The notes below the pieces were generated by a model. That model was not told the origin of the DNA. It made no database searches and worked only from the letters and a program-made list of their open reading frames with translations. Of a DNA stretch of 32,184 nt, positions 2,051 to 31,539 are shown in pieces. A program made the position numbers and the translations under genes. This stretch comes from Chiloscyllium plagiosum. Its lineage: Eukaryota. Where the stretch lies: contig NC_057718.1 in NCBI RefSeq assembly GCF_004010195.1, forward strand, positions 47,170,116 to 47,202,299, in the 5' to 3' direction. Within the stretch, counting starts at the first letter, position 1. Every line of letters starts with the position of its first letter.

Positions 2051-2234
2051 GGAATCATTAATTAATCTCCTGGTGGAGTTCGATAAGTATGAATTCTTTT
2101 AGTAACTGGACTGACCAACTAGAATTCATCACCTGAGTAGAGTAGAAAGTGAGGTCTGCAGACGCTGGAGATCAAAGCTGAAACTTTATTGCTGGAACAG
2201 CACAGCAGGTCAGGCAGCATCTAGGGAACAGAAG

Positions 2235-2270
2235 ATTCGACGTTTCGGGCACATGCCCTTCTTCAGGAAT
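2235..2270 (-). ncRNA. Minimal type I hammerhead ribozyme, copy A (TATDN3 sense strand)
   Basis: Reverse complement reads ATTC-CTGAAGA-A-GGGC-ATGT-GCCC-GAAA-CGTC-GAAT. Confidence 0.8.
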
Positions 2271-2340
2271 GAGCAGAGAGTGTTCAGCAGGAGAAGATAA
2301 AAGGTAGGGAGGAGGGACTTGGACTGAACACTCTCTGCTC

Positions 2341-2376
2341 ATTCCTGAAGAAGGGCATGTGCCCGAAACGTCGAAT
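2341..2376 (+). ncRNA. Minimal type I hammerhead ribozyme, copy B
   Basis: Stem I ATTC/GAAT; core CTGAAGA 2345-2351; stem II GGGC/GCCC; GAAA 2365-2368; predicted cleavage after GUC at 2372. Confidence 0.8.
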
Positions 2377-2768
2377 CTTCTGTTCCCTAGATGCTGCCTG
2401 ACCTGCTGTGCTGTTGTTCATTTCTGTGAATCCAAGACGCATTTTCTTAGATGAGGTGAATAAAACTATTCAAGTTATTCTAGGTGTTATCTCTATAATA
2501 AATAATTGCAGCTCTAGCACTAATCCCAGTGGCACTCTACTCACTCCAGGTTGCCTCCTTGAAATTTCCTAACAACACCCCAACCCGAATCCCTCCAGCC
2601 CGGCACCGCCTTCCTGACCTGCAGTCTTCTTCTTGACCTCTCCGCCTCCACCCTACTCCGACCTATCACCTTCACCTTGACCTCTTTCCACCTATCACAT
2701 TTCCAACGCCCCTCCTCCAAGTCCCTCCTCCCTACCTTTTATCTTCTCCTGCTGAACACTCTCTGCTC

Positions 2769-2804
2769 ATTCCTGAAGAAGGGCATGTGCCCGAAACGTC
2801 GAAT
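2769..2804 (+). ncRNA. Minimal type I hammerhead ribozyme, copy C
   Basis: Identical to copy B; predicted cleavage after 2800. Confidence 0.8.
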
Positions 2805-2977
2805 CTTCTGTTCCCTAGATGCTGCCTGACCTGCTGTGCTGTTCCAGCAATAAAGTTTCACCTGAGTAGAGTGCCTACCTCTGAGCCAGGAGGCCGATGT
2901 TCAAGTCCCATCTGCTCCAGAAGTGTGTAATAACATCTCTGAGAAGGTTGGTTCAAAGTTATCGCATAAAGCAGATA

Positions 2978-3135
2978 CAGTGCATTGCCCACAGTGGGCT
3001 TGGCATTTATACTTTTAATTAGCTGCATTGGTGATTACTGGTGGTGGTTAACAGATAAAAAAACTCACGGTGATTTGGTGGTGGGAAATTCACTTCATTG
3101 TGTGCTGTAACATTTCCGGATGTAGAGGAAAAAAA
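2978..3135 (+). mobile_element. L1-Tx1 LINE 3' UTR fragment with A tail
   Basis: Similar to 4470-4610 (gtgatttggtggtgggaaa...taacatttccgga...A-run); bracketed by AAAGCAGA on both sides. Confidence 0.7.
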
Positions 3136-3364
3136 AGCAGACCCAGAAAGCCCTTGTGGCACAGTGTCCCTATCTCGGTTGTGGAGGCCTGAGTTCAAGT
3201 CTCAATTGCTCCAGAGGTATGTAATAACATCTCTGAACAGGCTAATTTTAAGAAACTAAAGCAGACCGTGTGAGAGCTCTTGTAGTGCAGAGGTACTGTC
3301 CCTACAGGTTCAAGTCCGATCTGCTGCAGGTGGGTGTCATAACATCTCTGAATAGATTGATACA

Positions 3365-3582
3365 CGAGGCTCAATCTCCTCCTGCTCTCCCTATCCCTCC
3401 CTCACTGTTGATGGTTTGCATTACCCGTAATGGGCTTTACATGAAAACATCTAATTGGCTGCACAGCTGATTTACTTGTGGTGAATAGTAGGTAGAAAAA
3501 AATGTCACAGTGCTTTGGTGATGGAAAAGCCACTTGGTTATGTGTGATAACATTTCCGGATTAAAAAAAATGAAAAAAAGTT
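3365..3582 (+). mobile_element. L1-Tx1 LINE 3' UTR fragment with A-rich tail
   Basis: Similar to 4420-4610 (aattggctg...tttggtgatggaaaag...taacatttccgga, A-runs). Confidence 0.7.
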
Positions 3583-3961
3583 ATTAAGCAAATATGGAAG
3601 CTCTTGTGGTACAGTGGTAGTTTCCCTACCTCTGGATCAGGAAACCTGGGTTCAGATCCCACCAGCTCCAGAGGTGCATCATAACATGTATGAATGTGTT
3701 GATGAGAAAACATTATAAGGTGATGGCTGGCTCAGCTATACACTGGACCATGAATAAGACTGTTTCAAGTCCCATGTACTCCAGAGGTGTGTGATGGCAT
3801 CGCTGGATAGGTTGATTACTAAATTTAAAAAAAACTTTGTGGTGCTGTGGAAGTGTCCTTACCTCTCATTCTGGAGGCCTGGGTTCAAGTTCTAACTGCT
3901 CCAAGAGATGTGTAGTACCATCGCTGAATAGGTCGATTAGAAAATATATAAAGCAGACCCA

Positions 3962-4610
3962 CGCACAGCCCAACTGCTTATTTTGTGGCACTGCGGAGGC
4001 CGTAGATCATGTTTATATTTGTTGTTGATGATTGCCCTCCCTTCTTAGTTATTTAAAAATATCTTTTGTTAAGAAGTTTATTGCACTTCAGCCCCATGCT
4101 CCTGATCTTTGAACATCTGGTGCAGAGGGATGTGCGCACATCAGTGGACCCCTCGTGGGTATGCTCCTGGGCTTGGCAAAGTTGGCGATAAACAGTCAGC
4201 AGTCTGTGGAGTGAGTAATCTCTGCTGACTGTCTGCCTGTTCTGTGGTTACATTCATGTTTGGGTATCACTGAAGGAGGTGCACATGGTATCGTTCAAAG
4301 CTTTCAAAGCGTTTAGAGACAGGTGAGTACTGTGAGGGATATTTCCCTCACTGACTCGATTTTGATTTATCCCCTTCCCTCAACCCCAACCCCCCTCACC
4401 ACTCCACCCCCCCAAAATGGCCGACTCACTTTTGATGTTTTGCACTGTACTTTAAGGGCTTCTGCACATAAATATCCAATTGGCTGTATGGTGGTTTACT
4501 GGTGTTTGTTGCTGGTTGTGAACAAATAAAGTTATAGTGATTTGGTGGTGGGAAAGCTGTTCGGTTGTATGAGTTAACACTTCTAGATATGAAAAACAAA
4601 AGGAACAGAA
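3962..4610 (+). mobile_element. 5'-truncated L1-Tx1 LINE (ORF2 C-terminus and 3' UTR)
   Basis: Encodes CLFCGTAEAVDHVYIC (CxxC...H...C zinc knuckle) and, frameshifted, LLIF and LLGLAKLAIN; A-rich tail; perfect 14-bp TSD ATAAAGCAGACCCA (3948-3961, 4611-4624). Confidence 0.85.
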
Positions 4611-4744
4611 ATAAAGCAGACCCAAGAACTTTTGTGGTACAGTGGTATGACCCTACCACTGAACCCGGAACCGTGGGTTCAAGTCCGACCTGCTCCAAGA
4701 GCTGCGTAGGAACATCACTGAACAGGTTGATTAGAAAATATATT

Positions 4745-17067: not shown

Positions 17068-17263
17068 AACAAAAATAAAGACCTGTGGACGCTAGAGATC
17101 AATACAAAAAAAAAGAAATTGTTGGAGAAATGCAACAGATCTGCTAGCACCTGTGGGGAGAAAGTAGAGTTAATGTACATCTGGTCACTGGAAATGTGAA
17201 CTCTGCTTTATCTCCTCAGATGCTGCCTGACCTGCTGAGTTTCCCCAGCAAATTCTGCTTTGG
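17068..17263. mobile_element. Short fold-back Penelope-terminus-derived element inserted in a SINE
   Basis: Imperfect inverted arms; shares GATGCTGCCTGACCTGCTG with 2144-2857; 13-bp TSD TTTTTAAAAACAA (17055-17067, 17264-17276). Confidence 0.75.
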
Positions 17264-29700: not shown

Positions 29701-30936
29701 CATTCCACAAAACTGCGCTGTTGCAGTCACTTGAACTACCTTCCACTTCATCTAGATGTCTAAGATGGACTGTGTTTGCAGGAACACCATGTACAAAACT
29801 CTGGATAAGGGGGGCAAAAACGTACTCAACGTTGCTCTTGACTTGATGGCCACCTTTGCGTGTGATTGCATCAAGTTACGTGTAGACCCTCTGTGCACAC
29901 ACCGTGTTACTATTTACTGAGGTTTTACCTGTCCTTGGTGTTATAGGATGCGCTGCGTAGTCAACCTTTCTGTATCGTGAAGAAATTTAAGAAAAACACC
30001 TTTGACCACATGCCCATCAGGAATTAGTCAGCATGTAGCATCTGAGACTCTGCGGCAAAAGGAGAGGGTGGATCCGGTCACGTGGCTCCATGAGCAGACT
30101 GTCAGTCATTTGGCAAAATGCCTCATCACCAGAACTTTCCAAATAGCATCATCATTGCTTGGCTGGTGGTGGGAATAGCATTACCTGTGAGAGTCGAGAG
30201 TGTGGTGCTGGAAAAGCACAGTAGGTCAGGCAGCATCCAAGGAGCAGGAGAATCTATGTTTTGGGCAAAAACCCTTCATTGGGAAGGATGCTGAGGGGGT
30301 GGTGAGATAAATGAGGGGGCATGGGGCTGGGGGAAAGGTAGCTGAGAGTGCGATAGGTAGATGGCGGTGGGGGTAATAGTCATCGGTCGGAGAGGAGGGT
30401 GGAGCGGATAGGTGGGAAGGAAGATGGACAGGTCATGAGAGCGTGCCGAGTTGGAAGATTGGAGCTGGGATAAGGTGGGGGAGGGGATGTGAAACTGGTG
30501 AAATCCACATTGATGCTGTGGGTTGAAGGGTCCCGAGGCGGAAGATGAGGCGTTCTTCCTCCAGGCATTTGGTTGTTAGGGAGTGGCGATAGAGGCAGCC
30601 CAGCACCTGCATGTCCTTGACGGAGTGGGAGGGAAAATTAAGTGTTTGGTCACTGGGTAGTGGGGTTGGTTAGTGCGGGTGTCCCGGAGATTTTGTCTGA
30701 AGCGCTCTGTGAGTAGGCATCCTGTCTCCCCAATGTAGAGGAGACCACATCATGAGCAATGGATACTGTAAGGTGACACTTTGGTGGATGAAGACGGCTC
30801 CTTTGGGGCCTGGAACAGAGGTGATGGGGAAGGTGTGGGCACAGGGTTTGCAATTCCTGCGGGGGCAGGGGAAGGTGCCAGGAGGGGAGGCTGGGTTGGT
30901 GGTGGGCCTGGATAAGGGAGTTGCAGAGGGAATGGT

Positions 30937-31539
30937 TTAGGGTGTAGGTTTGCTCACTGAGCTGTAGGTTTGATATCCAGCCGTTTCATTACCTGAGGGG
31001 TTGATAGATGGTATCTGGATCTATGTGTTTGTTTATGGCATTGTGCCAGGCCTCTAGGAATTCTCTGGCATGCCTTTGCCAGAGACAAAAAAAGATACAG
31101 ACTGCAGATTCCTCAAGAACAAACCACGACAAGCAGACCAAACACAGCCAGAAACGCTAACCACCTTACCATACATCAAAGAAGTTTCAGAAATGACAGC
31201 CAGACTACTAAGACCCCTCGGAATCCTAGTAGCACACAAACCCACCAACACTCTCAAACAAAAACTAACAAACTTAAAAGACCCAGTACAACCCATGGAC
31301 AAAACCAATGTCATCTACAAAGTTCCATGCAAGGACTGCCGCAAACACTACGTAGGACAACCAGGAAATGATACAACCACAAACCCCAGGAACCCCATCC
31401 AGGACAAACATTTAAATAGAAAGCAGGAGACAACAGCTTCGCTTCACTTGGAGGTCGCCCCTGATGATGTTACCTAGCCAGGTAATGAAACGTCTGGATA
31501 TCAAACCTACACCCTAAGCCTCAACCTGAGCTACAAACC
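30937..31539 (+). mobile_element. Internally deleted Penelope-like element with a short inverted 5' arm, nested in the previous element
   Basis: 16-bp TSD TTGCAGAGGGAATGGT (30921-30936, 31540-31555); ORF 31070-31477 has TLPYIKEVSE...NVIYKVPCKDCRKHYVGQ (GIY-YIG start); tail ctcaacctgagctacaaa shared with 22863-23558. Confidence 0.9.
31458..31497 (+). ncRNA. Minimal hammerhead ribozyme (core intact, stems slightly decayed)
   Basis: CTGATGA 31461-31467; stem II GTTACC/GGTAAT; GAAA 31487-31490; GTC 31492-31494; first stem I pair mismatched. Confidence 0.6.

Follow-up and report, generated by a model that had tools for sequence, protein, structure and literature searches.

A young two-arm Penelope-like insertion with minimal hammerhead motifs in Chiloscyllium plagiosum, and the probable assembly origin of its middle

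Introduction

Penelope-like elements (PLEs) of the EN+ kind are described as units with a hammerhead-bearing pLTR and a GIY-YIG ORF upstream of it, together with an adjoining inverted 5'-truncated copy and a 30-40-nt tail on one side only (PMC8557442; Frangieh et al. 2024, PMC11167929). Both the truncated inverted copy and the tail are part of the account of Craig et al. 2021 (PMC8557442), which states that such structures trouble short-read assemblies and places a Zn-finger-like linker in both Neptune and Nematis, while PMC11167929 ties the one-sided tail to two reverse-transcription start sites. Metazoan PLEs carry minimal hammerheads (min-HHRs; Cervera and De la Pena 2014, PMC4209133), and the same source describes dual motifs on opposite strands, 100-700 bp apart. 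Non-LTR retrozymes are characterized as tandem families with canonical type I motifs (PMC7229834; bioRxiv 10.64898/2026.07.22.740005). Finally, capture of host DNA between PLE pLTRs has been described in Adineta vaga (Arkhipova et al. 2013, PMC3846280).

Here we analyze an insertion near the left end of a 32,184-nt stretch of C. plagiosum DNA, hereafter the window (G000:C9:47170116-47202299, from a genome of 3.56 Gb). It shares with the EN+ PLE units of these accounts the pLTR with a hammerhead, the GIY-YIG ORF upstream in related copies, the inverted 5'-truncated copy and the one-sided tail; unlike them, it has only the last 180-270 nt of the element, and its assembled middle contains non-element DNA. 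Its hammerheads resemble those of PMC4209133 in their intact core, vestigial stem III, additional unpaired base before stem II and 4-bp stem I, but stem II of the predicted motif is palindromic and 4-5 bp long, unlike the 7-8 bp given for Schistosoma. Like the non-LTR retrozymes described by Cervera and De la Pena 2020 (PMC7229834) and Li et al. 2026, the insertion is non-coding and PLE-related, and its type I-like hammerheads share a strand with a spacing in the 150-450 nt range; unlike them, it shows no repeated unit and no family, and combines a minimal hammerhead with the inverted arm and tail of a PLE. Unlike the Adineta vaga case, the capture seen here is probably assembler fill, and the in-register junction slide described below does not figure in the sections of PMC3846280 drawn on here.

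Results and discussion

Architecture of the insertion

Several structural statements of an initial annotation of this DNA hold in the assembly text: the target-site duplications (TSDs) at 2129-2143 and 2858-2872 are perfect 15-bp copies with 714 bp between them, the longest stop-free stretch in the insert is 88 codons (no ORF had been reported), three identical 36-nt hammerheads lie at 2341-2376 (+), 2769-2804 (+) and 2235-2270 (-), and the predicted cleavage sites of the two plus-strand copies, 2372 and 2800, are 428 nt apart. To describe the insert we use a ruler, q, which is a natural 556-nt 3' end of the element taken from locus L001. The insert begins with an inverted arm on the minus strand (2144-2323, q373 to about q552), which is the 3' end of a young Penelope-like element (one with a possibly Neptune-like linker), includes the 30-40-nt tail and holds the minus-strand hammerhead. 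A sense piece follows (2324-2415, q409-500) that holds hammerhead copy 1 and ends at a stop, q499/500, which recurs elsewhere. Next comes a plus-strand stretch of 171 bp (2416-2586) identical to decayed LINE-like DNA at about 46.8937 Mb of G000:C18 (L002 1501-1671); it is probably gap fill, and otherwise captured host DNA. The remainder is a sense arm (2587-2857, q244-517) that holds hammerhead copy 2 and has a tail-less end with 3-nt microhomology into the TSD. The first 19 nt of this arm (2587-2605) are element sequence that replaces, base for base, the C18 DNA present in a related copy on C2 (L004). The sense piece and sense arm share a direct repeat of 92 nt (100% identity, spacing 428), and the inverted arms match over 148 nt at 99% identity. 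Since arm ends in the family are of two kinds, near q517-520 or at q551-556, matching the one-sided tail of PLEs, we assign the tail to 2144-2323 and take the arm that runs to 2857 as tail-less.

These comparisons identify the insertion, at the level of sequence, as a young two-arm PLE insertion with minimal hammerheads. The existence of the middle (2416-2605) in the DNA of the animal is doubtful, and the layout with two plus-strand hammerheads is itself probably a product of assembly.

The arms belong to a GIY-YIG Penelope-like family

Thirty loci, representing 24 distinct insertions, match the 556-nt 3' end at 95-100%, and two inverted young arms are present in 14 of the 24 distinct insertions sampled. 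Upstream of the 3' region, family copies have a continuous GIY-YIG frame, which scores 22.9 bits (L012) and 22.4 bits (L016) against the PF01541 profile with its cut-off of 22.6; a CxxxxCxxC linker precedes it, and pieces resembling reverse transcriptase (RT) lie upstream in some loci. The window itself has the features of an EN+ Penelope-like insertion, namely an inverted 5'-truncated arm, a one-sided tail and a TSD. We agree with the initial annotation that Penelope-type minimal hammerheads lie here in a very young TSD-flanked insertion: the outer arms and TSD belong to a young insertion in which a Penelope-like element of the GIY-YIG type is represented by its 3' end with the hammerhead. 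Insertions of this kind are already known, and this one is an ordinary stub of a known kind of retroelement.

Elsewhere in the window, 30206-30469 and 17218-17251 are older Penelope 3' fragments (~70-85% identical), and 31058-31474 (+) holds a 139-codon stretch that we take to resemble the GIY-YIG end of another Penelope family.

Hammerheads and the retrozyme proposal

The hammerhead core (CUGAAGA/GAAA) is intact, as is the min-HHR layout with stems I and II and a vestigial stem III. The 33-nt hammerhead string has 1,886 exact occurrences in the genome and its control has none; the triple in the window is neither chance nor rare. An Rfam search (E up to 1) gave no hammerhead match, and miRNA hairpin matches in Rfam were discarded as sub-gathering scores arising from the inverted repeat. 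In predicted folds, which take no account of pseudoknots or protein help, hammerhead 2 of a whole-insert transcript is buried in a 148-bp duplex and the stem II palindromes of both hammerheads in 2324-2860 pair together; stem I forms in neither. These predictions suggest that the active form is not favored.

The initial annotation had gone further and put forward a retrozyme-like candidate from a possibly still active family, adding that the insertion would be a one-off rearrangement if no other copy had its architecture. Such a non-LTR retrozyme would consist of the 428-nt unit, cut out by its two plus-strand hammerheads acting as a dimer, circularized as a monomer and copied into new loci. 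The intact core and min-HHR layout speak for it, as do the proposal of dimer cleavage for such motifs in PMC4209133 and the length of the arm 2324-2857, which amounts to 1.25 units. However, the 428-nt unit is found at no other genome locus: it is single-copy, forms no tandem array and belongs to no tandem family of hammerhead units. A genome search for copies with the same interior returned three other insertions, all without an upstream same-strand hammerhead, and hammerhead spacing differs between loci, the same-strand spacings on C1 (80 matches) being 66, 253, 286 and 712 and never 428. The repeat boundary at 2415/2843 sits 43 nt downstream of the cleavage site instead of at it, and the motif is minimal and not canonical type I, having a stem I of 4 bp and no stem III loop. 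To the predicted folds without stem I can be added the published behavior of related motifs, since of nine dimers from frogs a single one was active in vitro (bioRxiv 10.64898/2026.07.22.740005), and cleavage by the hammerhead of an anole PLE is described as requiring protein (PMC11167929). We regard a retrozyme as highly improbable.

At another locus, L050 898-1314, two same-strand hammerheads lie 286 nt apart with 155 nt between them, and this spacer seems to be the element's own post-tail sequence.

The interior matches C18 DNA and has other copies

Searching the genome with the interior (2416-2580) gave 26 matches: those at the window locus, C18, C24, C2 and C31 are 99-100% identical, one is to a local repeat of 63 nt on C18, and the remaining 20 are short, with identities of 77-92%. 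By this comparison C18 is the native context of the interior DNA. No young element was found at the C18 donor junction, and the idea of a source element at C18 was rejected because no young-family copy lies within 20 kb around the donor. Read by eye, each of the copies on C24, C2 and C31 has two arms and is flanked by TSDs. That on C2 shows 4 differences from C18 in ~1,016 nt and may be a real chimera. In the window, the left join (2415/2416) falls on an 8-nt word common to element and donor, with a 3-nt slip. The presence of the captured segment between pLTRs is attested in the assembly only, and both joins bear signs of artefact. The C18 donor locus also has a 63-bp near-perfect duplication (L002 582-644 and 1514-1576) framing 870 bp.

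Public DNA runs X1 and X3 (samples S1 and S2) each give a single contig of 435 nt that spans the donor junction on C18 without branching, with depths of 7.6 and 9.0, respectively, which are neighbor-like and single-copy. The unbranched contig fits, and does not prove, an absence of such chimeras in S1 and S2; contigs attest presence and not absence, and these samples may not have private insertions. In runs X5 and X6 coverage is interrupted close to the donor junction, which makes them uninformative here, as is an RNA run (~2% read) on expression, with 0 reads on the unique part of the donor. A search for RNA runs containing the C18 donor listed none, which is likewise no evidence on expression. 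One X5 contig joins L063 1501-1525 and L002 1580, places on C18 that are 16.7 kb apart, at a 5-nt shared word, and represents either a deletion allele or a jump; its loose end had been considered as a fifth insertion, which was rejected when it mapped 16.7 kb upstream on C18.

Junctions slide in register

The junction from donor to element differs among the four C18 copies, in which donor sequence ends at L002 1665, 1671, 1674 and 1690, and in all four, two fixed anchors are exactly 25 nt apart. Over the 25 positions between the anchors, donor and element agree at only 6, and no junction uses the 7-nt word that they share 20 nt out of register. The right join of the window (2586/2587) is such a slid junction. 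In a second family a minisatellite is joined to the element at q310. Its 99 matches are all of one length, and 8 show a slide of 3 nt; when 31 gap lengths were allowed, all 18 further slid copies were in register, and with a farther anchor so were 8 of 8 (2 of them new), none exceeding 27 nt. In a third and older cluster, which involves a carbonic-anhydrase gene (L110-L113), the three non-source copies are slid by 15, 18 and 20 nt, all in register, against an unslid copy at the presumed source gene. In a fourth, the 'host-DNA' family (L115-L134), none of the 20 junctions is slid, and family alleles form a gradient towards the junction. Slid copies in the first three families number 3, 28 and 3, with none out of register; the slides are strictly ungapped with a ceiling of 27 nt, and none in the opposite direction was found when sought. 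In the second family, slid arms stand beside looped arrays in 16 of 21 cases, compared with 4 of 22 for unslid arms (Fisher, p 0.0002). The arms are mosaics of two haplotypes, and the slid stretch of L111 carries a variant also present in its own other arm.

Some origins of the register were tried and abandoned. The hairpin of an old pLTR, which lies 250-480 nt beyond the donor junction on its downstream side, is off by 173 nt. Palindrome correction from the insertion's own other arm fails in the window and L005, where that arm stops short of the junction, and in L001 and L113, where the sequence also differs from the own arm. Template switching, our initial reading of the slides and one that the carbonic-anhydrase cluster at first supported, was displaced by the loops, the fit of gap sizes, the q499 stops and the zero-difference copies described below.

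A search of the literature, in which subscription papers were mostly not covered, found no description of an in-register slide. As biology, the slide would mean that PLE RT starts on helper RNA, continues as much as 27 nt beyond the end of homology and then passes base for base to a second template, which may be genomic DNA; we think this quite unlikely. If true, such a hand-over would explain intron retention and host-DNA capture by PLEs and would give a ruler for the hybrid channel of the RT, and the slides, if confirmed by reads, would be of direct relevance to the mechanism by which introns and host DNA are copied by PLEs.

Signs of assembler fill

Of 119 arm ends examined (a set enriched by directed searches and imperfectly de-duplicated), 108 lie at biological ends, q513-527 or q551-556, and 8 lie at q499-500. 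All five N-terminated arm ends are at q499; the other three ends at q499-500, that of the window included, abut three unrelated sequences, and the 2415/2416 join coincides with this stop. The centre of the window insertion (q373|q409) occurs at 11 places in the genome at no more than one mismatch, the window included. In all six of these loci that were examined q499-500 is the end of the sense piece; N comes next in three of them, and three unrelated sequences in the others. The stop recurs with two different centres, that of L026 and that of the window.

Comparable patterns occur in the other junction families. Arrays of the minisatellite subfamily are perfectly periodic loops in three patterns, nearly all of 24-25 units, and the distance from the anchor to the arm end is exactly 509 nt in 12 cases. 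At this same point L064, a three-hammerhead twin of the window with a 712-nt spacing, has a join without N, so blunt N-free joins do occur in this assembly. Among the 20 copies of the fourth family, the 21,396 host bases that they share are free of differences, compared with 19 differences in 8,400 bases that include arms. A collinear ORF piece lies on the far side at 15 loci, and there the length of the fill correlates with that of the missing element (Spearman 0.73, p 0.002; 6 further loci without a usable far piece were dropped). At 11 of the 15, three with N in the fill, the fill is 202-325 nt short of the missing element, and the other 4 are off this offset. A copy of the carbonic-anhydrase cluster on C9 has the same offset, 236 nt, as measured with a ruler from a 79%-identical family. 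Since its junctions are slid by 15-20 nt and its C9 copy fits the gap offset, the carbonic-anhydrase 'capture' cluster may be mis-fill. Duplicate loci on unplaced contigs, tried as a test for artefact, were absent from the 8 regions examined.

How the middle may have arisen

We consider it likely, judging from these patterns, that the middle, with its C18 DNA and 428-nt spacing, is an assembler mis-fill borrowed from other loci. The insertion itself would have formed as published PLE anatomy implies: the endonuclease would cut both target strands 15 bp apart, reverse transcription would proceed from each end at the element's two start sites, and the outcome would be one tailed and one tail-less arm, head to head. 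Such near-identical palindromic arms could then leave a gap in the assembly. Extension from the left would follow the commonly used centre path and stop at q499/500 as elsewhere, extension from the right would follow the arm into the path of a real junction of C18 DNA and element at another locus, and the two extensions would be abutted without N. A plain element arm mis-joined to a chimeric path in this way would yield an ungapped, one-directional and capped slide with local variants. Longer element arms and a simple palindrome of ~290 bp both fit as the true interior. Some observations run counter to a mis-fill: the window is free of N, the C2 copy has its 4 differences from C18, and the shared word and slip at 2415/2416 are what a polymerase jump could leave. 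In addition, N may mark withheld sequence and not a gap, and templates may truly end at q499.

The insertion would be real as assembled if template switching by the RT had captured the 171 nt of host DNA, producing a one-off chimera with a third hammerhead. The RT would have run 19 nt past the junction on the RNA of a helper element, switched in register to a template of C18 DNA plus element and, as the last step, returned to a pLTR by way of a short word common to both. The four C18 junctions lie in one register despite only 6 of 25 matches and with the off-register 7-nt word unused, and the second family (8 of 99, 18 of 18 and 2 further slid copies) and the carbonic-anhydrase cluster (3 of 3, with the unslid copy at the presumed source gene) behave alike; the lack of reverse slides, the mosaic of two haplotypes in the arms and the variant that L111 shares with its own other arm point the same way. 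However, mis-joining predicts the same register, direction, local variants and unslid source, and it also accounts for four features that a real capture leaves unexplained: the limit of slides to 27 nt, the stop at q499, the loops in the arrays and the fit to gap sizes. The 236-nt offset of the C9 carbonic-anhydrase copy, the lack of a young element at the C18 junction and the 0 of 20 slid junctions in the fourth family also argue against a real capture, which we judge unlikely.

The practical value of a probable mis-fill is a warning. N-free joins beside young Penelope arms mimic captures, tandem hammerheads and new non-autonomous families, and such findings in this assembly need read support. 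Cheap flags are an arm that stops at q499/500, an in-register slide of 27 nt or less at a junction, and a fill ~200-325 nt shorter than the missing element.

Other observations

The minisatellite loci (L064-L109, and for example L051 and L052) join the minisatellite to the element's last 247 nt, with at least 99 unslid or 3-nt-slid junctions and 20 further slid ones. They are possibly a real non-autonomous subfamily, but the arrays are looped fills and the copy number may be inflated. In the fourth family (L115-L134), 6 of 9 truncated copies abut a collinear ORF piece of the young family. In each of three pairs of insertions (L026/L031, L011/L016 and L028/L029) the two members lie at different sites but have the same inversion centre, and one centre, in which the hammerheads are 111 nt apart, is found repeatedly, with in-register slides in both directions. 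In the window, directly to the right of the insertion, 2889-4743 consists of degenerate local repeats that are 68-79% alike and 115-440 nt apart.
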